From positions 20,988-84,987 of IMG/VR virus record IMGVR_UViG_3300030330_003356: 64,000 nt of DNA; one strand, written 5' to 3'. The stretch is from a virus (lineage: Duplodnaviria; Caudoviricetes). Numbering within the stretch: the stretch's first letter is position 1; every line of letters begins with the position of its first letter. The position numbers were made by a program, and so were the translations under genes. A model generated the notes under the pieces. It ran no database searches and had not been told where the DNA came from. It was given only the letters and a program-made list of their open reading frames with translations. Below, in pieces: positions 7,687 to 62,995 of the stretch.

Positions 7687-9083
7687 TGGCGTTAAATCCT
7701 TTTTTCTTACAAGGCTCTCAAGGAGAGCAAAGTCTTGTTCAAGACTTGATCAACGAACAGTTGAGGATGTATGGTGTTGAAGTATATTACTTACCAAGAC
7801 AATACGTCACTAAAAACAAGGTAATACGAGAAGTAATTACTTCAGAATTTAATCAATCATATCCCATTGAGGCATATGTTGACAATTTTGATGGATATGG
7901 CGATAATACAGTTCTTTTATCAAAATTTGGTGTTCAAGCAACGAGTGAACTTAAGTTAATCATTTCACAAGAGAGATTTTCTAGTTATATTACTCCACTG
8001 ATTAAGAATTTACCAAATATTGAACTTGCAACTCGTCCAAAAGAGGGAGATCTGATTTATTTCCCACTTGGTGATAGACTTTTTGAAATTAAGTTTGTTG
8101 AGCACGAAAAACCTTTTTATCAGTTACAAAAAAATTACGTTTACGAATTAACTTGCGAACTGTTCAGAGGGGAAGATGAGGTTCTGGATACTGGTATTGA
8201 GGAAATCGATGATACCTTCGATGTGGAAGGAAATATCAGATCTCTCACGCTTATCGGATCTGGATCCACCGCAACCGCTATCTCTGGAAGAATTGCTAGC
8301 GGTGCCGTCAACCAAATTATCGTTACCTCTAGAGGTGAAAAATACAATTATCCACCCGCTGTTGCGATTTCATCTGCACCTACCGGTGGTATCCGCGCCA
8401 CAGGAATTTCAACCTTACGTAACGACATTGTTAATTGTGATGGAACTCTGATTGGAGAAAAAGTACAAGGAGTCTTTATTTCTAATCCTGGTGCGGGATA
8501 TACAGTCAATCCCGGTATTGTATTCGTAGGAGTTAACACTAATCCTGGTGTTGGTGCTGCTGCAACAACTAGAATATCTGATAATACAGTTGGTGTTGTA
8601 ACTATTAGTGATGGTGGTGGAGGATATGTATCTGCACCAACAGTTACGTTCAGCAGCCCTGGAATTGGTACAACTGCACAAGGTGTTGCCGTCGTCTCTG
8701 CTGCAGGAACAGTTACTGCAATTTATTTGACAAATGCTGGTGCTGGATACACAGTGGCACCTACTATCACCCTATCCGCTCCAGATCTTGGTGGAAGCGG
8801 AGACTTTATTCCCACAGAGACTATCACTGGTTCTACAAGTGGCGTTACTGGAATTGTTAAAACTTGGAATTCTGTCACAAACGTTCTTACATATTCTAAC
8901 GTCTCTGGCGACTTTGTTGCTGGCGAGACAATTACTGGATCTGAAAGCAGTGCTTCCTATGTAATTAGGGTTGTAGAAGATGACAACACTGTGAATAAGT
9001 ACCCCGATAATGATGAAATTGAACTCTCTGCTAAGGATGGAATCTTAGATTTCTCAGAATCAAATCCCTTTGGGAATCCTTAA
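7686..9083 (+). CDS. gp14: Neck protein gp14 with extended repeat-containing C-terminus
   Basis: MALNPFFLQGS...EQSLVQDLINEQLRMYGVEVYYLPR, RPKEGDLIYFPL, FEIKFVEHEKPFYQL, ending DFSESNPFGNP. Confidence 0.92.
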   Translation: MALNPFFLQGSQGEQSLVQDLINEQLRMYGVEVYYLPRQYVTKNKVIREVITSEFNQSYPIEAYVDNFDGYGDNTVLLSKFGVQATSELKLIISQERFSSYITPLIKNLPNIELATRPKEGDLIYFPLGDRLFEIKFVEHEKPFYQLQKNYVYELTCELFRGEDEVLDTGIEEIDDTFDVEGNIRSLTLIGSGSTATAISGRIASGAVNQIIVTSRGEKYNYPPAVAISSAPTGGIRATGISTLRNDIVNCDGTLIGEKVQGVFISNPGAGYTVNPGIVFVGVNTNPGVGAAATTRISDNTVGVVTISDGGGGYVSAPTVTFSSPGIGTTAQGVAVVSAAGTVTAIYLTNAGAGYTVAPTITLSAPDLGGSGDFIPTETITGSTSGVTGIVKTWNSVTNVLTYSNVSGDFVAGETITGSESSASYVIRVVEDDNTVNKYPDNDEIELSAKDGILDFSESNPFGNP

Positions 9084-23737: not shown

Positions 23738-24297
23738 TGGCACATCGTACAGTTGGTGCTGGACAAAGTATAACTACAAGTGGTAGTTCTGCTAAAAGTG
23801 ATGCAATTGCTGTAAAATCTAGCGTTTTAAGAATTACCGCCAGAGATGAGGATGCACATATTGCTATTGGCACAGAACCAACAGCAACAGTGACAGATTA
23901 TATTATTCTTGCCGGAACTAGTGAAACTTTGGGTGTTACTAAAGCATCTCAGAGAGTTAGAACTATTGAAAGTTCAGGCACAAAAACAATTGTCACTTGT
24001 CCCGAAGGCACTCAACAACCATTTGCCGTAGGAGACTGTGTTACTCTCGAAGCAAGTAATGCAGATAGTAACTGGACAACAGTTATTAGTCATGTCGGTG
24101 TTGATAGCGTTGATTCAAGTGCAGATTTTAGTGGTTCTTTTAGCACTAAGGTAACTCTAAGTGCTGATACAAGTGGCATTTCTACAGATTTTGTTAGTAG
24201 TGACGCTACCCTTCGTAAATCGATCAAAGTAGGTGCTGTTGCTACTGGCGCTGGATCTATTTTCGTTCAACAAGTACAAATAACCGGAGTTGCCTGA
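23737..24297 (+). CDS. Hypothetical beta-rich protein, 186 aa, in the head module
   Basis: Stop/start overlaps on both sides; Ser/Thr/Val/Ala-rich composition. Confidence 0.65.
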   Translation: MAHRTVGAGQSITTSGSSAKSDAIAVKSSVLRITARDEDAHIAIGTEPTATVTDYIILAGTSETLGVTKASQRVRTIESSGTKTIVTCPEGTQQPFAVGDCVTLEASNADSNWTTVISHVGVDSVDSSADFSGSFSTKVTLSADTSGISTDFVSSDATLRKSIKVGAVATGAGSIFVQQVQITGVA

Positions 24298-24947
24298 TGA
24301 AACTTATCAGAGAGGAAATCGAATCCGTCGAATTCATTGTCGAATCGAAAGGCGGTAAAAAACAACTTTATATTGAAGGTGTATTCCTTCAAGGAAACAT
24401 TAAAAACCGTAATGGTAGAATGTATCCTATGGAGACACTTCGCCGTGAAGTTGGTAGATATAACGAAAACCATGTTCAGGCAGGTAGAGCACTTGGTGAA
24501 CTTGGACACCCTGACGGCCCTACCGTTAACTTAGATCGTGTATCTCACAAGATTGTTTCTCTGAGAGAGTCTGGTTCTAACTTTATTGGTAAAGCGAAGA
24601 TCCTAAACACTCCCATGGGTAAGATTGCAGGATCTCTCATTGATGAGGGCGTCAAACTTGGTGTTTCTTCTAGGGGTATCGGTTCATTAAAGATGACACG
24701 CGAAGGTGTCAATGTTGTTGGTGATGATTTTATGTTAGCAACTGCTGCTGATATTGTTGCCGATCCTTCTGCTCCTGATGCATTTGTTGAGGGTATTATG
24801 GAAGGAAAAGACTGGGTATGGGATGGTGGTATTCTTCGTGAAAAATTTGCGGAGAAAACATATAGAGAGATTAACACTCTCGCTACTCAAAAGCAACTTG
24901 ACGAGAAGAAGTTGGATTTATTCAACGATTTTCTCAATAACCTTTGA
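24297..24947 (+). CDS. gp21: Prohead protease gp21
   Basis: YIEGVFLQGNIKNRNGRMY, RALGELGHP (catalytic His), GVKLGVSSRG (catalytic Ser), DIVADPSAPDAF. Confidence 0.96.
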   Translation: MKLIREEIESVEFIVESKGGKKQLYIEGVFLQGNIKNRNGRMYPMETLRREVGRYNENHVQAGRALGELGHPDGPTVNLDRVSHKIVSLRESGSNFIGKAKILNTPMGKIAGSLIDEGVKLGVSSRGIGSLKMTREGVNVVGDDFMLATAADIVADPSAPDAFVEGIMEGKDWVWDGGILREKFAEKTYREINTLATQKQLDEKKLDLFNDFLNNL

Positions 24948-25015: not shown

Positions 25016-26110
25016 ATGTCTCGTGGCAAAAATTTACAAGAAATGGAAGTAAAGACACAGCAGTCCAAAACTGCTGCTAATGCTAACGCCAAACCTGGCG
25101 ATCCCATGCCCTCTCTGTCTGGAACAACTCCTGGACAGACTGGTTCTTACGAAGATCTCGGCGGGCCTACCCCTGAGAACTACAAAACCGATGATGATTC
25201 AGCAAAGCTGAAGACTCCCGGTAGCACTCTTAAGCAAGTTAAGGATGTAGTTAACAAGAAGGCAAAACCTGGTGATCCTGCACCTGCAGGCATGAAGGAA
25301 GAAGAAGTCGAAATCGAGGAACCCGTGATCGAAGAGGAAACCACAGACGAAGTAGTTGCTGAAGAAGAAACTACTGAAACCGTCGAGTACAACGTTGAAG
25401 AGGATGTTAACGCACTCCTCGGCGGCGAAGAACTCTCCGAAGAATTCAAAGAGAAAGCAAAGACAATCTTTGAAGCCGCAATCAATGCTAAGGTTGCTTC
25501 TATTCAAGAAGAAATCGAAGCACAATATGCTGCCAAGCTCGCTGAAGAAGTTGAGGCAGCGAAAGAATCACTCGCAGAGCGTGTTGATTCTTATCTTGAG
25601 TATGTCTCTGACGAGTGGTTTGAAGAAAACGCACTTGCCATTGAGGCAGGCCTCAAGACTGAAATGACTGAATCATTCCTTGAAGGAATGAAGGGCCTTT
25701 TTGAAGAACATTATGTATCAATCCCTGAAGAAAAATATGATGTGCTTGAGAGCATGGTAGAAAAACTTGATGATATGGAGACAAAACTCAACGAGCAAAT
25801 CGAGAAAAATATTGCTCTGAACGGCAGACTCGCTGAGTCTGTTGCAGACGGTATCCTTGATGACGTTTCTGAAGGACTTGCGTCCACTCAGAAGGAGAAG
25901 CTCGCCTCACTTTCCGAAAGTGTAGAGTTTGAAAGTGAAGAATCTTATCGTGAAAAGCTGGAGACGCTGAAGGAATCTTATTTCCCTAAGAACGCTGCTC
26001 CCGTCGCTAAAACTGAAACCCTGTCTGAAGGCGAAACTCATAACCATCAGCAGTATTCTGATCAAATGAGTGCTTATCTCAGATCCCTGGGAACTTTTAG
26101 CAAATCCTGA
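25016..26110 (+). CDS. gp22: Prohead core scaffolding protein gp22
   Basis: Acidic coiled coil; ELSEEFKEKAKTIFEAA, VDSYLEYVSDEW, GLFEEHYVSIPEEK. Confidence 0.92.
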   Translation: MSRGKNLQEMEVKTQQSKTAANANAKPGDPMPSLSGTTPGQTGSYEDLGGPTPENYKTDDDSAKLKTPGSTLKQVKDVVNKKAKPGDPAPAGMKEEEVEIEEPVIEEETTDEVVAEEETTETVEYNVEEDVNALLGGEELSEEFKEKAKTIFEAAINAKVASIQEEIEAQYAAKLAEEVEAAKESLAERVDSYLEYVSDEWFEENALAIEAGLKTEMTESFLEGMKGLFEEHYVSIPEEKYDVLESMVEKLDDMETKLNEQIEKNIALNGRLAESVADGILDDVSEGLASTQKEKLASLSESVEFESEESYREKLETLKESYFPKNAAPVAKTETLSEGETHNHQQYSDQMSAYLRSLGTFSKS

Positions 26111-26155: not shown

Positions 26156-27541
26156 ATGTTCCAATCCGAACAGCTGCAGGAGAAGTGGGCACCCCTTCTT
26201 GAGTACGATGGACTTGAGTCTATCAAAGATCCTCATAGAAAGGCTGTAACCGCTGTCCTGCTCGAAAACCAAGAAAAATTCCTGAAGGAGTCTTCCTCCT
26301 TTGAGACTGGTGGATCCCTCCTGAGTGAGGCTGCTCCTACCAACTCAACCGGTTCTAGCGTAGACAACTTCGATCCCGTTCTGATCTCCCTGATCAGACG
26401 CTCCATGCCTAACCTGATCGCTTACGATCTGGCTGGCGTTCAACCCATGAGCGGCCCCACTGGACTCATCTTCGCGATGCGTTCCCGCTATCAGAACCAG
26501 ACTGGAACCGAAGCGTTCTACAACGAGCCTGATTCTGCATTCTCCGGACAGAACTTCGGACGCAACCTGGAAGGTGGCTTCTCCGATGGTACTGCTGGTA
26601 TGGGTACTACCAGTCAGTCTGGTACTAATCCCTCCGTCCTGAACCCTGTTGGTTCTGCCAACTCCAACGCATATAACCTTGGACAAGGTATGCAGACTTC
26701 CGATGCTGAGGCACTCGGAGATGCTGCTGCTAATGCCTTCAACCAGATGGCATTCAGCATTGAGAAGGTAACCGTTACTGCTAAGTCACGCGCCCTCAAA
26801 GCTGAGTACTCCCTGGAACTGGCACAGGATCTGAAAGCAATCCACGGTTTAAACGCCGAGGCTGAACTCGCCAACATCCTCTCTACTGAGATTCTGGCTG
26901 AGATCAACCGCGAAGTTATCCGTACTATCTACAAGGTTGCTGAGCAAGGTGCTGTTCAGAACACCGCTACCGCTGGTGAGTTCGATCTCGACATCGACTC
27001 CAACGGACGCTGGAGTGTTGAGAAGTTCAAGGGACTGCTGTTCCAGATCGAAAGAGACGCTAACGCGATTGCACAAAGAACTCGTAGAGGAAAGGGCAAC
27101 ACGATCCTTTGCTCTGCTGACGTTGCTTCTGCTCTCACTATGGCTGGTGTACTTGACTACACCCCCGCTCTGAACGCTAACCTGAACGTTGATGACACCG
27201 GTAACACCTTCGCTGGTGTTCTGCAAGGTAAGTATCGTGTATACATCGATCCTTATGCTGCTAACCTGACTTCAGGTAACGCAACCCCCGGTAACCAGTA
27301 TTACGTTGTCGGTTATAAGGGTTCTTCCCCCTATGACGCTGGACTGTTCTACTGCCCCTACGTTCCCCTGCAAATGGTTCGCGCCGTTGGAGAGGACACC
27401 TTCCAACCCAAGATTGGCTTCAAGACTCGCTACGGAATGGTAGCGAACCCCTTCGCTGAAGGAACCGAAGCACAACTGGGTGCCCTGAACGTTAATCAGA
27501 ACCGTTACTACAGACGTGTTGCTGTTAAGAACCTGATGTGA
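26156..27541 (+). CDS. gp23: Major capsid protein gp23
   Basis: LISLIRRSMPNLIAYDLAGVQPMSGPTGLIFAMR, SRALKAEYSLELAQDLKAIHG, FYCPYVPLQM, FQPKIGFKTRYG; likely maturation site LLSE|AAPTN. Confidence 0.98.
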   Translation: MFQSEQLQEKWAPLLEYDGLESIKDPHRKAVTAVLLENQEKFLKESSSFETGGSLLSEAAPTNSTGSSVDNFDPVLISLIRRSMPNLIAYDLAGVQPMSGPTGLIFAMRSRYQNQTGTEAFYNEPDSAFSGQNFGRNLEGGFSDGTAGMGTTSQSGTNPSVLNPVGSANSNAYNLGQGMQTSDAEALGDAAANAFNQMAFSIEKVTVTAKSRALKAEYSLELAQDLKAIHGLNAEAELANILSTEILAEINREVIRTIYKVAEQGAVQNTATAGEFDLDIDSNGRWSVEKFKGLLFQIERDANAIAQRTRRGKGNTILCSADVASALTMAGVLDYTPALNANLNVDDTGNTFAGVLQGKYRVYIDPYAANLTSGNATPGNQYYVVGYKGSSPYDAGLFYCPYVPLQMVRAVGEDTFQPKIGFKTRYGMVANPFAEGTEAQLGALNVNQNRYYRRVAVKNLM

Positions 27542-43536: not shown

Positions 43537-43968
43537 ATGACAAACTTAATGAAGTTTAATGCTGCCGATTTGGATCAGTTGATGGATAAAATCACCCGTA
43601 ATTCTATCGGGATTGATGACTATCTGAACAACGTCTTCCATACCCAAACACAAAGCAACTATCCCCCATATAATGTTGTACAATTAAACAATACAGAGAC
43701 TAAACTTGAGATTGCTCTGGCTGGATTTACAAAAGATGAAATCAAAGTTTATACAGAGTATGGTAAACTCACAGTCAAAGGGGAGAAAGAAGCAACCACC
43801 GAGGAGGGACAATACCTTCATAAAGGACTTGCTCATAGGAACTTTGAAAGATCATGGACACTTGCTGAGGGAACGGAAGTTACTGATGTGACTTTTGAAA
43901 ATGGACTTCTCAGTGTGCTTGTGAAGAAGATTGTTCCTGAACACCATGCTCGTAAGGATTATCTCTAA
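43537..43968 (+). CDS. hsp20: Small heat-shock protein Hsp20 (IbpA-like)
   Basis: NYPPYNVV, EIALAGF, YLHKGLAHRNFERSWTL, FENGLLSV. Confidence 0.95.
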   Translation: MTNLMKFNAADLDQLMDKITRNSIGIDDYLNNVFHTQTQSNYPPYNVVQLNNTETKLEIALAGFTKDEIKVYTEYGKLTVKGEKEATTEEGQYLHKGLAHRNFERSWTLAEGTEVTDVTFENGLLSVLVKKIVPEHHARKDYL

Positions 43969-51003: not shown

Positions 51004-51786
51004 ATGCCTAAATTTAAAACCTATAAAGAAGATTCTCCTAGGGATAAAGATTATTATGATCTCCCTTCTAGTGTCAACAACAAAGGTTTTTTATATGAAG
51101 AGTACATTTTTGAATTATTGAAAGAGCAAAATTTAGTGCCATCTGGATTTTATCCAGCAGGTTCAGATGACACTGCTCCTGATTGTAAGTTTATCTGGAA
51201 AGGTAAAGAATATAATCTTGAAATTAAACTTAATGAAAAAGCAGATTTTGGGCAGAGTGGATTAAAGTATAATATCTCTACAAAGAAATGGTACTTGGAT
51301 GGTAAGAACAATACTTATCATCGAACCATGAGAAAAAATTTAGAAAAATTTGGAGTCCCATCTTTTGTGCAAAAAGAATGGGGCTCTTTTGGTGTTCCTA
51401 GACTTTTTGAAAGAGCAAGTAATAGAGAAAAAATGACTTGGGATGATAAAGATCATGACTATCAAACTTTCAAAGACGCTTATATCCCCATAGATAATAG
51501 AACTTTTTTTAAATTTTATAATTCAAAAAATGTATACTATATTCAAATCGGTGGAGGGTATGGGACTTACTACTTGGGGAAAGATCCTGCTAACTTAAAG
51601 GGATTTACTGATATTATAAAATTTGATGGAACAATTAAATTAAGAATCAGAAAAAAAGGTTCTACAATATCTCCCAACTATCGATTTAGCACTGCTTTGA
51701 TGATTGATAGTAATCCCACAAAATCACAATTTGACATTTCACAAAGCGACTCCATAGAATATTTGGTTTCAAATCTTTCTAAATAA
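51004..51786 (+). CDS. PD-(D/E)xK restriction-endonuclease-like protein
   Basis: GFLYE...APDCKF...NLEIK: E, PD and ExK residues in nuclease order; visibly AT-rich coding sequence. Confidence 0.55.
   Translation: MPKFKTYKEDSPRDKDYYDLPSSVNNKGFLYEEYIFELLKEQNLVPSGFYPAGSDDTAPDCKFIWKGKEYNLEIKLNEKADFGQSGLKYNISTKKWYLDGKNNTYHRTMRKNLEKFGVPSFVQKEWGSFGVPRLFERASNREKMTWDDKDHDYQTFKDAYIPIDNRTFFKFYNSKNVYYIQIGGGYGTYYLGKDPANLKGFTDIIKFDGTIKLRIRKKGSTISPNYRFSTALMIDSNPTKSQFDISQSDSIEYLVSNLSK
51779..51785 (+). promoter_or_regulatory. Late promoter (CTAAATA) upstream of the nucleotidyltransferase
   Basis: TAAATA core overlapping the end of the nuclease gene. Confidence 0.55.
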
Positions 51787-51808
51787 CATATAAGGATCAA
51801 TAATATAG

Positions 51809-53038
51809 ATGAAAAGTTTCTTTCAGTTCCTTGGTGAAGCAGAAACACAAGCAGCATCACAGGCGAAAAAACTTGGTTTGAAAGGCGACGGACATGGTGG
51901 CTGGGTAAACCGTGCTGGAGAGTTTGTCGCTAAAACCGTTGACGGTAAGTTAAAGTTTTTTGATAAGAATCAAAAACCTGGTAAGGATCCAGATCAAACT
52001 CCTAATACTAAAAAGGTAGAACCCAAACTTAAAACCAAAACAATGTCTGTGGACAAATCTCCACAGAAAGCACCAAAGAAAGGTGGAAAGGAAGGAGACG
52101 AAGAAGTAATCGGATCTGATACTTTGACTCTCGCTTTCGGTAGATTTAATCCTCCTACTGTTGGGCATGAAAAACTTTTACAGATGGCAAAGAAAGTTGC
52201 CGCTAATGGTACTTTAAGGATTTATCCTTCTAGGACTCAAGACAAGAAGAAGAATCCTCTTGATCCTGATATTAAAGTATCTTACATGAGAAAAATGTTC
52301 CCTGATTTTGAGGAGAACATTATTAATGATAGTGAGATGAGATCTATCTTTAATGTTCTGCAGAGTGCAGATAGAGATTTCAAAAATATCAATATCATTG
52401 TAGGTTCGGATCGTCAAGCAGAATTTGAAAACCTGTCAAATAAGTACAATGGTGAACTTTATAACTTCGATGAGATTAGAGTGATATCTGCTGGTGCAAG
52501 AGATGCAGATGCTGAAGGAATCGAAGGAATGTCTGCTTCTAAGATGCGTAAAGCAGTTGTAGATGGAGATATGGAATCCTTTAAAAAAGGACTTCCAAAG
52601 ATTGTTACAGATTCTGAGGCACAGTCACTCTTCGATGCTGTTGCTGATGGAATGAAAATTAAGAAGAAACAGAAAGTCGCTGCTGAGATGTGGGAGATTG
52701 CTCCTAAGTATGATGCTAAAGGACTTAGAGAGCAATATGTAAATGGACTCATCTATAAGATTGGCGATATTGTAGAAAATTTGAACACAGGATTGATTGG
52801 TGAGATTGTCCGTAGAGGAACCAATCATCTTATTTGTGTCACTAAAGAAAATATCATGTTCAAGTCTTGGATTCGTGATGTTATGGAGTATACTGAAGTT
52901 AAAATGGATCGTCGTATGAGAGTTCCTGGTAAACCTAACACTCTGGATGGCACTGGTGGTTATCTCAAGAATGCTATGGCGGCAACTGGCACCTCTACTA
53001 TTAAGAATTTCATAAATAAGTACAAAGCTAAAAAGTAG
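51809..53038 (+). CDS. HIGH-superfamily nucleotidyltransferase (cyanophage cytidylyltransferase)
   Basis: FGRFNPPTVGHEKL (HxGH-like), IIVGSDR, MSASKMR; N-terminus resembles the T4 capsid-targeting sequence. Confidence 0.8.
   Translation: MKSFFQFLGEAETQAASQAKKLGLKGDGHGGWVNRAGEFVAKTVDGKLKFFDKNQKPGKDPDQTPNTKKVEPKLKTKTMSVDKSPQKAPKKGGKEGDEEVIGSDTLTLAFGRFNPPTVGHEKLLQMAKKVAANGTLRIYPSRTQDKKKNPLDPDIKVSYMRKMFPDFEENIINDSEMRSIFNVLQSADRDFKNINIIVGSDRQAEFENLSNKYNGELYNFDEIRVISAGARDADAEGIEGMSASKMRKAVVDGDMESFKKGLPKIVTDSEAQSLFDAVADGMKIKKKQKVAAEMWEIAPKYDAKGLREQYVNGLIYKIGDIVENLNTGLIGEIVRRGTNHLICVTKENIMFKSWIRDVMEYTEVKMDRRMRVPGKPNTLDGTGGYLKNAMAATGTSTIKNFINKYKAKK
53011..53018 (+). promoter_or_regulatory. Late promoter (CATAAATA) upstream of the 783-aa protein
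   Basis: TAAATA core 30 nt before the ATG. Confidence 0.5.
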
Positions 53039-53047
53039 TAGATAGCC

Positions 53048-55399
53048 ATGTCTAATGGAATCGGTAAGAATCCTTTGAATGATATTTCAAAGGTATACTT
53101 AGAAATGCGTGAGTCTTATAAGATTGAACCTCCTAAGGAGAGATTGAAGACTGATCGCAATATGTTCAATATTCCTAAGGACGAACAAGAGGCAGCTAGA
53201 GAGCGTCTTAAGGCAAAGGCTGCTGCTAAGCGTGCTGAGCGTGCTAAGATGAAAGAAGCACTTGATCCTGTTGGCAAGGAAGATGGTGATGTCAATAATG
53301 ATGGTAAGAAAGATAGCACCGATTCTTATCTGTTGAAGCGTCGTAAGGCAATCGCCAAAGCGATGAAGACTCGCAAAGAAGAATTAGAGACTACTGAGAT
53401 TGAAATCACAGAAGAAATGGTGGCAAGTAATGCTGCTCATTACTTCTATGAAGAGGGTATTAATGAAGAGGGTGTAGAAATATTCATTGAAGAACTTGGA
53501 CTCGAAGAGTTTGTATCTTTTGTAGAGGATCTGTCTTCTGACTTGCTTACTGAAGCGAGAGCGGCAAGAAGAGCACGTAAAGGTGCAAAATCATATGATC
53601 AAGTAAAGGCAGAGATTGATGCCAAAGAGGCTTCCAAGAAAAAAGCATCTCCCGCAAAGGTTCAGACTGCTACAGCAACTGCTAAAAAGCAACAACCTAA
53701 GAAGAGAGGTGCGTTAGATAGCATTGCAAGAACGGTTCTTAAGGGGATGGATCGTCATAAAGCGGCAATGGCAAGAGCTAAGAGTGATATTCAAACCACC
53801 AAAAAGATTGCTTCAAAGGTTGGTAAAGGTGCAAGGGAATTTGGTAAAGGATTTGCTTCTGGTGTAAAAACTGCAGGTACAACTGCAAAGGTTGCAAAGA
53901 AAGCAATGGAAGAGTACTCTGATTGGAGATCTGATCTCGTAGAAGCAGATCTTATTGAAGTTATGGATGAGGACGAAGCAGAAAAACCCATCAAAGAAAA
54001 GAAGGTAAATAATAAAGTAAAGATCAACCCTAAACTTGGTGAAGCCATTGAAGAGATTGGTGGAACTTTGCTTGAGGAAGTTGAGATTGATGAACTTGAT
54101 ATCATCATTGAGAGTGTATATGATGAACTGATTGAAGAAGGATACTCTGAGGATGATGTTGAGGATGCGATTGAGTTTGCTCTGACTGAACAACTTAATG
54201 AGGTAAGTGATCGTTATTATGATTCTGCAGTAAAAGCATCAAAGGATGCTGCTGCCAAGAAAAAAAGAGAAGAGATGATGAAGAGAGCGAAAGGACGCCT
54301 CAGATTCATGAAGAGAAAGGCTGGTGAAGCATCTGCCAAACTGAGAGGAAAGGCTGCTGGTGCTGCTGTTGCTGCTACCATGGCGGGTGGTATTGCTAAA
54401 GATCAGGCAAGAAGAACTGGTAGAGCAGTTAAGCAGGCAGTAACAAGTGCTCCTGGAAAAGCGAAGAGAAGCATTAAGGATAGAATTAAGAAAGCAGCAC
54501 TTGGTGTTGCTAAGCGCATGAGCGAGGAAAAGCAGGATCTTCAAGAACTTCCTATTGTCCCCATGGCTGCTGGTGCCGCTGCTTTAGGTGGTGCTGCCAT
54601 GGCGATTAATAAAGCGATGAAATCTGCAAATACTCATAGCGATAAGTCAGTTGGAAAACCAACAATCCAGGGTGCTGCTTCTGGTATGAGAAATAAAAAT
54701 GCTAAACTGCAAAAAGCGTTAGATCTGCTGAAGCAATCTCATGAGCCTGAGGGTGATGTTATCGATGAGAAGTTTGGCATGGCAGCAGACACTTCTAAAC
54801 CTCAGTCTCCAAGGCCAACAAAAATGCCTAAGAGCAGAGAAAGAAACATCGGGAAGCATGACGACTGGAAGGATAAGCATCCTGACAAGAGAGATTTCGG
54901 TGAAAGGCCTTCCAAAGGACAGAAACTGAAGTCCAGAGCATCCGCTGTTGTCCAGTCCCAGAGACGCACCGACAAGGAAGTTGGTGTCAGAGAGCAGAGC
55001 GAACTTGAGGAAGGCAAGAAAAAAATGCCTTACGTCAAGATGTTCCGCAAGGCAGGTAACCTTGGACGTGACGGAAGTCCTGAAGCAATGGAGCGTTCTA
55101 AGAAAATCACTGGTGTGATGAACAAGAATGCTGAAAGAGTTGCTGCTCACCGCGAAAGAGATGATGCTGCCAAGGATGCTAAAGCAGCAAGAAAGGCAAA
55201 AATGAAAGAAGAATTATCCATTGATCAGCAGATGAAGATCTCTCGTGATGCAGCAAAGGATAGAAATCCTAATCCTGATCACAAGGCAATTCGTGGTAAG
55301 ATGTTGAAGAAACCTCTTCCTAAGGACACTAGAACAGATGCTCAGAAAATGACTGATGCAACTGGCCCCCGTCCTGGTTCCCGTTACAGAGGTGACTGA
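53048..55399 (+). CDS. 783-aa modular protein with alternating acidic and basic blocks
   Basis: Basic Lys/Ala/Arg modules begin right after LxE motifs (LLTE|ARAARR, QLNE|VSDR, DLQE|LPIV, VIDE|KFG, ELEE|GKKK). Confidence 0.75.
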   Translation: MSNGIGKNPLNDISKVYLEMRESYKIEPPKERLKTDRNMFNIPKDEQEAARERLKAKAAAKRAERAKMKEALDPVGKEDGDVNNDGKKDSTDSYLLKRRKAIAKAMKTRKEELETTEIEITEEMVASNAAHYFYEEGINEEGVEIFIEELGLEEFVSFVEDLSSDLLTEARAARRARKGAKSYDQVKAEIDAKEASKKKASPAKVQTATATAKKQQPKKRGALDSIARTVLKGMDRHKAAMARAKSDIQTTKKIASKVGKGAREFGKGFASGVKTAGTTAKVAKKAMEEYSDWRSDLVEADLIEVMDEDEAEKPIKEKKVNNKVKINPKLGEAIEEIGGTLLEEVEIDELDIIIESVYDELIEEGYSEDDVEDAIEFALTEQLNEVSDRYYDSAVKASKDAAAKKKREEMMKRAKGRLRFMKRKAGEASAKLRGKAAGAAVAATMAGGIAKDQARRTGRAVKQAVTSAPGKAKRSIKDRIKKAALGVAKRMSEEKQDLQELPIVPMAAGAAALGGAAMAINKAMKSANTHSDKSVGKPTIQGAASGMRNKNAKLQKALDLLKQSHEPEGDVIDEKFGMAADTSKPQSPRPTKMPKSRERNIGKHDDWKDKHPDKRDFGERPSKGQKLKSRASAVVQSQRRTDKEVGVREQSELEEGKKKMPYVKMFRKAGNLGRDGSPEAMERSKKITGVMNKNAERVAAHRERDDAAKDAKAARKAKMKEELSIDQQMKISRDAAKDRNPNPDHKAIRGKMLKKPLPKDTRTDAQKMTDATGPRPGSRYRGD

Positions 55400-56139
55400 T
55401 GCCTTTAGATCTGAAGAAAGACGATATGGGGGATGTCATTAAGGACTTTTATAAGTCCAAGGCACCCCAATTCAAAGGTAAGTCTAAGAAAAAAAGAAGG
55501 GAGATGGCCATCGCTGCCAAGTTAAGTGCAGAGCGTGGCCCTCTTCCCGAAGAGGATAATCCTCGTATTCCTAGAAAGAAGGGACAACCTGCTAATTCTA
55601 AGAAACATTCTGATCTTTACACTGATGAGAATCCTAAGGGAACTATTCATGGTTTAGGATTTAAAGATGTTGCTACTGCGAAAGCATCAGTCTCTAAGAT
55701 TCGCAATTCATCTAGATCTCATGCTCATAAGATCCAGGCAGCAGTTGCTATGGAACAAAGAGCAAGAGAGATGGGTAAGACTTCAGAAGCAGCAGTCTTC
55801 AGAAAATATATTAATGCGATGAAAAAGAAGACTAAGAAGATGAATGAGGGGTGGAGTGACAAGTATAAGAAGTCAATTGATTGTAATAACCCCAAAGGAT
55901 TCTCACAGAGAGCACATTGTCAGGGTAAAAAGAAGAAAGTAGACGAAACTGCTTACTACAAAACTGACAAGTATAATAAAAAGGTTGCAGACGCAGAAAA
56001 GCGTAACAAGGAAAAAGACAAACGAATGAAGTTTGGTAAGTTTTATGATAAAGCAAAGGAAGCAAGAGATCGTTTACGTCCTGGTGAAGTAAAACGTTAC
56101 GATAAGAAGTTAGGAAGGTACGTTTCTAATAAAGAGTGA
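55399..56139 (+). CDS. 246-aa modular basic protein
   Basis: Four Lys-rich modules separated by LPE|E, KMNE|G and KVDE|T. Confidence 0.72.
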   Translation: MPLDLKKDDMGDVIKDFYKSKAPQFKGKSKKKRREMAIAAKLSAERGPLPEEDNPRIPRKKGQPANSKKHSDLYTDENPKGTIHGLGFKDVATAKASVSKIRNSSRSHAHKIQAAVAMEQRAREMGKTSEAAVFRKYINAMKKKTKKMNEGWSDKYKKSIDCNNPKGFSQRAHCQGKKKKVDETAYYKTDKYNKKVADAEKRNKEKDKRMKFGKFYDKAKEARDRLRPGEVKRYDKKLGRYVSNKE

Positions 56140-56170
56140 CGATATATAGTGTGTAGAACTGAGGTTCATC

Positions 56171-56371
56171 ATGCTCGCATTTTTACTTCCTTTAGCTTCA
56201 AAAATTATCAAAGATGCCGTCGCCAAGATTCCAGAAAATGAGGAACTCGGTGAGAAGATGGTTGAGATCTGTCTTATTATTCTTGCTAAGGCAGTTAAGT
56301 TAACCAAGACTGATATGGATGATCAACTGCTTGAAGTTGTCACTAAGGCAATTGAAGCGAGAGAAGAATGA
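56171..56371 (+). CDS. Small helical hypothetical protein, 66 aa
   Basis: GAGG SD; FLLPLASKII...LTKTDMDDQLL. Confidence 0.7.
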   Translation: MLAFLLPLASKIIKDAVAKIPENEELGEKMVEICLIILAKAVKLTKTDMDDQLLEVVTKAIEAREE

Positions 56372-56374
56372 ATT

Positions 56375-56382
56375 TATAAATA
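56375..56382 (+). promoter_or_regulatory. Late promoter, perfect TATAAATA
   Basis: Exact consensus upstream of the 56416 gene. Confidence 0.75.
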
Positions 56383-56415
56383 TCTCTATGCAATTAAAAC
56401 TATCGGACGCAAGAC

Positions 56416-56946
56416 ATGGCACTCTGGGGCAATAACGATAATATTACCACAACCGGAATTGTCACCGTTAACTACTCTACCAGAGAAGTGACAGGTTTCA
56501 ATGCAGGATTTGGTGAAAGTGGAAAGATTCAGGCTGGAGATATTATCCGCATTGGATCCCTGACAAAACCAGGAACATATTATGGCGATGCTGTAGTTGT
56601 CAGTATTGCTAGCACTTCTTCCTTGACTATCGCATCTACAGCAGGACTTAGTGGAGCTGCTATCGCTGGCACCTCTTACGTTGCTACTCAATATCCCAAG
56701 TGGGCTGTTGATGGACACAACAGTGAGAGAAACACTGCATACTCTTCACAGAACTATGGTGTCGCTGCCGCAGGTGCTAATGACGCAAGTGGTACAGTAT
56801 ACGAGACTGGTGTAGGTTGGGTTGGTGTTACAACTTACACTGACAATGCTGGCAACCTTAGAGTCAAGAAAGAGATTCTTTGTGCAATGTCTGGTATTAC
56901 CACAGGAAACGCTCCTAGTTATCCTAATATTGAAGCCGCTAACTGA
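56416..56946 (+). CDS. Putative virion structural protein, 176 aa
   Basis: MALWG start, Gly/Ala/Thr-rich, GWVGVTTYTDNAGNLRVKKE; late promoter upstream. Confidence 0.6.
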   Translation: MALWGNNDNITTTGIVTVNYSTREVTGFNAGFGESGKIQAGDIIRIGSLTKPGTYYGDAVVVSIASTSSLTIASTAGLSGAAIAGTSYVATQYPKWAVDGHNSERNTAYSSQNYGVAAAGANDASGTVYETGVGWVGVTTYTDNAGNLRVKKEILCAMSGITTGNAPSYPNIEAAN

Positions 56947-62391: not shown

Positions 62392-62553
62392 ATGCCACGT
62401 AATCAAATTACTGTTGCAGAGATCAAAACAAAAGTAGAGAAAATTAAAAATGAACTCTACTGGGAAGAAGGAAAGTATGGAGAAGAAGCAAGAGGTTTAG
62501 CACATAAATATGTCAACATGGTGCTAGACGCTATTGATGAGTATCGAATGTGA
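62392..62553 (+). CDS. 53-aa hypothetical protein
   Basis: MPRNQITVAEIKTKVEKIKNELYW...; ATG directly after a 9-bp hairpin. Confidence 0.6.
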   Translation: MPRNQITVAEIKTKVEKIKNELYWEEGKYGEEARGLAHKYVNMVLDAIDEYRM

Positions 62554-62995
62554 TTATGAAAACCCATGGTATTTTGAGGGAACCCCTTTTTTATCTGAGA
62601 ATATTGACGATAACTTCGGTTTTGTCTATCTCATTACAAATCTCTCAAACAATCGCCAGTACATCGGCAGGAAATACTTTTGGCAGTTTAGAACTCCAAG
62701 AGGTAAAAAACGAAAAGTAAAATCTGAATCTGATTGGAAAAAGTATTATGGTTCTTGTCCAGAACTTAAGGAAGACATTATCAAATTCGGCAAGCAAAAT
62801 TTTAGCAGATCTATTATCAGTCTTCATAAGACGAAGGGCAAAACTAATTTTGAAGAAACCAGACAACTCTTCATCAACGGAGTCCTCACCGAATCCCTTG
62901 ACACAGGAGAACCCAAATACTATAATAGCAACATCCTCAGCAGATACTTCCGAAAAGATTATTATGGAGACGGATGTGGTGATGCAAGCTCGTGA
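62534..62995 (+). CDS. GIY-YIG family endonuclease-like protein
   Basis: GFVYLITN...QYIGRK, YYGS, FSRSII, E and YYNSNI in GIY-YIG order. Confidence 0.75.
   Translation: MMSIECDYENPWYFEGTPFLSENIDDNFGFVYLITNLSNNRQYIGRKYFWQFRTPRGKKRKVKSESDWKKYYGSCPELKEDIIKFGKQNFSRSIISLHKTKGKTNFEETRQLFINGVLTESLDTGEPKYYNSNILSRYFRKDYYGDGCGDASS

Follow-up and report, generated by a model that had tools for sequence, protein, structure and literature searches.

A T4-type capsid-targeting-like sequence heads the cyanomyovirus core cytitidyltransferase

Among the closest described systems are the internal proteins of bacteriophage T4 and the T4 ADP-ribosyltransferase Alt. IPIII starts with MKTYQEFIAE|ASV and IPI with MKTFKEF, the latter being cut after ITE. 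The first ten residues of IPIII are enough for head loading (Black review; PMC9026906), and in the T4 capsid targeting sequence residues 4 and 7 have been mapped as the main targeting positions, residues 8 and 10 as those for processing (PMC9026906). T4 tagged proteins as well as Alt are ejected (PMC9026906). Alt provides the concept of a head-packaged, gp21-trimmed and injected early-acting enzyme, although its fold and chemistry are unrelated to those of a nucleotidyltransferase. Alt is not known to start with an IPIII-type decapeptide.

We analyzed a stretch of 64,000 nucleotides (hereafter the window), which is part of an 85-kb IMG/VR contig from a T4-like cyanomyovirus; the contig is about 44% complete and its nearest isolates are Bellamy, S-SM2 and S-SCSM1. 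The ORF at 51809-53038 (plus strand), whose start reads MKSFFQFLGEAETQ, was confirmed as a real gene and encodes 409 amino acids. Profile search matched the protein to PHROG 395 ‘cytidyltransferase’ (E 5.9e-97), and the ORF product is that of the cyanomyovirus core gene ‘cytitidyltransferase’ (T4-GC190, PHROG 395); T4-GC190 is on the cyanophage core-gene list (Sullivan et al. 2010). By tblastn, homologues were detected in 566 phage records, most of them of Synechococcus or Prochlorococcus myoviruses. The orthologues in S-SCSM1, S-SM2 and Bellamy are 62-68% identical over the full length with an equal domain order, ranging from the S-SCSM1 protein (62% over all 409 residues) to the Bellamy ORF (68%, tblastn); the S-SM2 orthologue is annotated as cytitidyltransferase, T4-GC190. 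The gene sits between gp41/mazG and gp61, a synteny kept in all three isolates. With no essential difference from the cyanophage cytitidyltransferase family (T4-GC190; PHROG 395), the window protein is a new member of it.

The first ten residues (MKSFFQFLGE, 51809-51838, plus strand) form a capsid-targeting-like tag with a predicted cut after E10, as judged from the likeness to T4 IPIII and from conservation across clusters. Like T4 IPII and IPIII, the window protein has Lys2, Ser/Thr3, aromatics at positions 4 and 7, Leu/Ile8, Glu10 and Ala11. A first-pass annotation of this DNA had proposed a T4-style capsid-targeting N-terminus, and with F4, F7, L8, E10 and A11 all present the protein agrees with IPII/IPIII at every position mapped in T4. 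The 409-residue protein has no [LI]xE|A other than L8-G9-E10|A11, and the three other [LI]xE sites lie inside a folded C-terminal barrel. Searching 1.84 billion cluster representatives with residues 1-63 returned 328 proteins, and conservation was counted in the 128 of the best 150 matches that retain the N-terminus, all being representatives of 50%-identity clusters. The decapeptide motif is nearly invariant over these 128 diverged clusters. Met1 and Phe7 are present in all 128, Lys2 in 125 and Phe4 in 110 (Leu in 16, Tyr in 2); on the cleavage side, Leu/Ile8 is found in 115, Glu10 in 123 and Ala/Ser11 in 110, and positions 5, 6 and 9 are variable. The same counts bear out the expectation that MK[ST]FxxF[LI]xE would be conserved in orthologues. 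Six-frame translation of the 85-kb contig yields the motif a single time, which together with the cluster conservation argues that the tag is not a chance occurrence; neither a second tagged ORF nor another copy of the N- or C-terminal module was found in the contig. AlphaFold2 (AF2) gave low confidence for residues 1-11 and drew residues 4-11 as a helix. TPR matches of the N-terminal query (P0201 and P0249) were rejected as repeat/composition artefacts. The deposited start of Bellamy gene 170 (L001:8001-9236), at 8049, is an internal Met that cuts off the tag; extending the ORF to 8001 gives the N-terminus MKSLFQFLNEA.

When a DNA pattern derived from the cyanophage tag was run against the T4 genome, it matched only ipII, ipIII and 61.1, and the reversed control pattern had zero matches there. 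T4 gp61.1 (L139:667-831) is an uncharacterised protein of 54 residues that starts with MKTFKEFIKE. Its gene adjoins the primase gene 61, and the cyanophage tagged gene is likewise located between gp41 and gp61.

The head-assembly proteins on which such a tag would depend are encoded in the same window on the plus strand. A gp21-type prohead protease (Peptidase_S77; 24297-24947; PF03420, E 9e-35) is the predicted processing enzyme, and a gp22-type scaffold (T4_CASP; 25016-26110; PF25623, E 5e-82) is the predicted docking partner of the tag. They are followed by the gp23 major capsid protein (26156-27541), whose N-terminal propeptide region retains LSE|A (residues 56-58|59); the Gp23 Pfam domain begins further on, at residue 69. 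We take this region to correspond to that in which T4 gp23 is cut, at LTE|A.

A late-promoter-like element, TCTAAATA, is located at 51778-51785 (plus strand), 31 nt before the ATG, and agrees with the published late consensus of cyanophages, NATAAATA (PMC2984593), at all positions but one. Its core TAAATA is kept in Bellamy and S-SM2, and the octamer TCTAAATA is also present 5' of the tail sheath and tail tube genes. The upstream late promoter noted earlier is a putative variant and not the exact T4 late octamer TATAAATA, which shows no enrichment in the window (3 matches versus 3.15 expected). A ribosome-binding site, AAGGA, was read from the sequence at 51792-51796 (plus strand) and is invariant in the three-phage alignment. 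The relaxed pattern [ACT]TAAATA lies 5' of genes for neck, sheath-stabiliser, fibre, sheath, portal, scaffold and tube proteins. The replication genes between 28181 and 50695 lack it, hsp20 at 43537 being the one exception, and it returns before four genes, at 51004, 51809, 53048 and 56416. The relaxed pattern, and not the exact T4 octamer, is the informative late motif. On this reading of the sequence, 51004-56946 appears to be a late-gene island within the replication module.

Besides the nucleotidyltransferase, the island contains two ORFs of 260 and 176 aa, a charged protein of 783 aa and a Lys-rich protein of 246 aa. The 783-aa protein, encoded by the neighboring, putatively late gene (53048-55399, plus strand), is a homologue of the S-SCSM1 virion protein gp280 and has six [LI]xE[AGS] sites. 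The 260-aa ORF upstream (51004-51786) had no Pfam match and shows by eye a PD...E-I-K pattern like that of PD-(D/E)xK nucleases; its position is filled in relatives by unrelated genes with no BLAST match to it. Elsewhere in the window, the PHROG 447 label ‘NAD synthetase’ for 62537-62992 was rejected, the protein being a SegE-type GIY-YIG endonuclease (Pfam E 9e-55).

To define the parts of the protein, we combined an orthologue alignment with an AF2 model built on 16 orthologues; all parts lie on the plus strand. Behind the tag, residues 11-58 (51839-51982) form a conserved mini-domain of a helix and three strands (GLxGDGHGGW...GEFVAKT...GKLKFF) that is missing from some tagged orthologues; its helix and strands lie at about residues 12-50. 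A 564-residue metagenomic protein, P0247, carries two copies of it (GL.S.G.G...G..VARTV.GEL) before an unrelated C-terminal part, indicating that the mini-domain is an independent module. Residues 59-102 (51983-52114) are, by alignment and AF2, a disordered low-complexity linker rich in Lys, Pro and Gln and of variable length; the ‘basic linker’ of the first-pass annotation is thus present but only mildly basic (pI 9.4). The HIGH-signature nucleotidyltransferase domain spans residues 103-286 (52115-52666), as assigned by Pfam, PHROG and a confident AF2 Rossmann-like fold over residues 103-285. It contains the (H/T)xGH motif in FGRFNPPTVGH (residues 110-120; TVGH at 117-120) and an SxSxxR motif (residues 241-247), in which H120 and R247, respectively, are invariant in the alignment. 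A disordered, unconserved linker (residues 287-301, 52667-52711) containing VAAE|MWE leads to a small beta-barrel (residues 302-360, 52712-52888) identified by structure comparison. Folded alone, the barrel is a generic SH3/Tudor/KOW-like domain (Z no higher than 7.4), and this modeled fold says little on function. Catalytic domain and barrel are separate ORFs in S-RSM4 and S-CAM1, which indicates that the modules are real evolutionary units. Residues 361-409 and the stop codon (52889-53038) make up a basic tail of low AF2 confidence. VAAE|MWE in the linker before the barrel and DVME|YTE at the barrel end do mark module borders, as had been suggested, but are not canonical protease sites. We rejected both as extra cuts: P3 is Ala or Val instead of Leu or Ile, VAAE is unconserved, and the positions are domain or gene borders in other phages.

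Tagged orthologues have been found in virions by mass spectrometry in S-SM1, S-SCSM1, S-CREM2 and S-SZBM1 (PMC3037559, PMC9602691, PMC10665884, PMC9146016), and T4-GC190, present in S-SM1 particles, was not detected in those of S-PM2. The N-termini of the four virion-associated proteins are MKKFSAFLNEA (S-SM1), MKSFLQFLKEA (S-SCSM1), MKNFSSFLTEA (S-CREM2, with the catalytic domain directly after) and MRFRQFIIEA (S-SZBM1). The S-PM2 protein, undetected in virions, has an N-terminus without the tag, its N-terminal half being like the ligase-like protein encoded upstream in relatives. Tag versus virion detection in these five phages constitutes a small but coherent natural experiment. The S-SCSM1 orthologue is annotated ‘NMNAT (virion protein)’, and its flanking genes, that of gp280 among them, encode virion proteins too. 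The authors of the proteomic studies proposed virion carriage and gave no loading mechanism; they also cautioned that particle preparations may carry along late proteins of high abundance (PMC9602691, PMC10665884). Packaging of the enzyme in this uncultured phage, as claimed in the first-pass annotation, is a prediction well supported by the conserved tag, the presence of gp21, gp22 and gp23, the tagged orthologues in four cyanophage virions and the undetected tag-less S-PM2 protein.

In S-PM2 p139 (L015:1633-2805), the catalytic domain is fused behind a segment like the C-terminus of the DUF6267 ligase-like protein. The DUF6267 ligase-like protein is the upstream neighbor in P-SSM7, S-SM1, S-RSM4 and S-SZBM1. 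The fusion and the neighborhood together hint at a functional link between the two enzymes. No DUF6267 gene is found in the 85-kb contig, a gap that does not mean absence from the phage since the contig is only 44% complete.

Loading through the T4-type tag is the best explanation of these observations, and a probable one. The gene would encode a late-expressed, 409-residue multi-domain nucleotidyltransferase with a T4-type capsid targeting sequence in its first ten residues. Aromatic residues 4 and 7 would dock the protein onto the scaffolding core during prohead assembly; the gp21-type protease would then cut after Glu10 (L-G-E|A), freeing a basic 44-kDa enzyme (pI 9.4) within the head, and the enzyme would exit with the DNA at infection. 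Its reaction would most likely be AMP transfer from ATP to a phosphorylated small molecule, NMNAT-like or PPAT-like. The arrangement resembles that of the T4 internal proteins in the gp21-type protease and gp22 scaffold present in the phage, the late-promoter-like element, the basic mature product and the occurrence of relatives of the window enzyme in virions. It differs from T4 in the cargo, a 44-kDa multi-domain enzyme versus a small basic protein, in the marine cyanobacterial host and in the single tagged gene of the contig versus the T4 cluster. Scaffold docking, the E10|A11 cut and ejection into the host are steps that we infer for the cyanophage enzyme. Alternatively, the tag could load the enzyme into the prohead to act or stay there, on the head contents or as a basic DNA-condensing internal protein, rather than as an injected effector. 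Such an in-head role would fit the basic mature protein (pI 9.4), the generic SH3-like barrel, a fold that often binds nucleic acid, and the highly charged virion proteins encoded next to the gene. It is nonetheless unlikely, as the invariant catalytic motifs argue that the protein is used as an enzyme, a filled head is unlikely to offer ATP and substrates, and T4 tagged proteins and Alt are ejected (PMC9026906).

The tag is also borne by other proteins. Scanning IMG/VR with the back-translated tag identified at least 120 stretches, from which 80 loci with 85 matches were examined. Each of the 85 matches listed for these 80 loci lies at the start of an ORF, preceded by no more than 27 in-frame codons. 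The tagged ORFs among the matches listed encode nucleotidyltransferases with and without the mini-domain, several basic protein families, DUF6267 proteins (E 1.5e-102; ligase-type KxDG motif) and a GNAT acetyltransferase. Many unrelated proteins from marine T4-like contigs start with this tag. Of 20 longer records with the tag, seven encode the S77 protease, and the three records with a completeness of at least 89% are all among these seven. Some IMG/VR contigs (L034:3736-4529, L041, L081, L087, L094) have two tagged ORFs about 280-1300 bases apart, like ipII/ipIII, and one ORF among these pairs is the GNAT acetyltransferase. The distribution bears on another reading, in which the N-terminus is no more than the initial helix of the N-terminal domain, detection in virions reflects an abundant late protein that co-purifies, or DNA-mediated carry-over, and the T4 likeness has no function. 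Despite the co-purification caveat of the proteomics authors and the AF2 helix at residues 4-11, we regard this as quite improbable: the tag also stands directly before the catalytic domain where the mini-domain is missing and on unrelated proteins, the S-PM2 enzyme, which has no tag, went undetected in virions, and the N-terminus agrees with T4 at all four mapped positions.

With the (H/T)xGH and SxSxxR motifs, the PF01467 match and the Rossmann-like fold, the HIGH-type catalytic domain recognized in the first-pass annotation is upheld, and the protein belongs to the HIGH-signature nucleotidyltransferase superfamily (PF01467-like). The Pfam score is barely above the cut-off (21.3 bits versus 21), and comparison with Foldseek and VIA-align places the catalytic domain among HIGH nucleotidyltransferases. 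The best structural neighbors are PPAT (Z 13.4; 3pxu, rmsd 3.1 over 155 residues), NadM (12.9), archaeal NMNAT (12.6) and NadD (12.5), which in these model-based comparisons appear tied. The window protein shares with NadM, NadD, archaeal NMNAT and CoaD the Rossmann-like HIGH fold, with 150-160 residues aligned, as well as GxFxPxTxGH and SxxxxR, but at 12-16% identity and far below the equivalog cut-offs. It also differs from NMNAT and CoaD enzymes in its extra N- and C-terminal modules, and the related genomes are without a salvage partner. Every NCBIfam equivalog model failed by a wide margin, including those of NAD type (TIGR00482, 16.4 versus a cut-off of 112.45; TIGR01526, 15.5 versus 341.15) and that for CoaD (TIGR01510, 13.2 versus 103.3), and sequence search against solved structures gave only marginal matches (best E 0.07). 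The motif after SxSxxR bears a weak resemblance to the NMNAT/MJ0951 type. Nampt (PF04095) is absent from the complete genomes of Bellamy, S-SM2, S-SCSM1 and S-SM1 and from the contig, with control genomes scoring positive. The structure comparison that the first-pass annotation called for thus confirmed a HIGH nucleotidyltransferase and left PPAT and NMNAT types tied at Z 12.5-13.4; the NMNAT-like reaction it had offered as an example fits the HIGH-type fold but is not singled out by the tied Z scores, the failed equivalogs or the absent Nampt. Because NMNAT and PPAT score equally, no substrate was assigned to the enzyme. Because, in addition, the equivalogs fail and the complete relatives lack Nampt, we assign only a general class, the transfer of an adenylyl or cytidylyl group to a phosphorylated acceptor, and regard NMNAT-like chemistry as the leading guess. 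The usual annotation in genome papers, a cytoplasmic auxiliary metabolic enzyme that makes NAD, CoA or CDP-glycerol late in infection, would accord with the cytidyltransferase, NMNAT or TagD labels in GenBank records and papers and with the HIGH-type fold, but is very improbable given the wide-margin failure of all equivalog models, the missing Nampt partner in four complete relatives, and the tag and virion presence that it leaves unexplained.

The gene family, its presence in virions and the T4 tag were each already known. Linking the family to the tag appears unpublished, and in the open-access literature searched no paper tied a capsid targeting sequence to cyanophage proteins. Head loading through the tag offers a concrete, testable mechanism for a repeated puzzle, the non-structural ‘cytidyltransferase’ or ‘NMNAT’ in cyanophage virion proteomes. 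It also provides a simple rule, based on sequence, by which candidate injected proteins can be listed from marine phage metagenomes, and suggests that the tag may be of practical use for bringing reporters or enzymes into cyanophage heads. How important the finding is will be decided by the substrate of the enzyme. For the T4 superfamily, the finding indicates that the T4 head-loading signal is conserved over a very deep split. We tentatively raise the possibility that MK[ST][FY]xxF[LI]xE|A is a portable head-loading signal of the superfamily, from coliphages to ocean cyanophages, and marks a large unrecognised set of injected enzymes (the nucleotidyltransferase, the DUF6267 ligase-like protein and GNAT); the nucleotidyltransferase might then be a counter-defence or takeover enzyme of the first minutes of infection, for example one that restores a nucleotide cofactor or attaches an adenylyl group to a host molecule.
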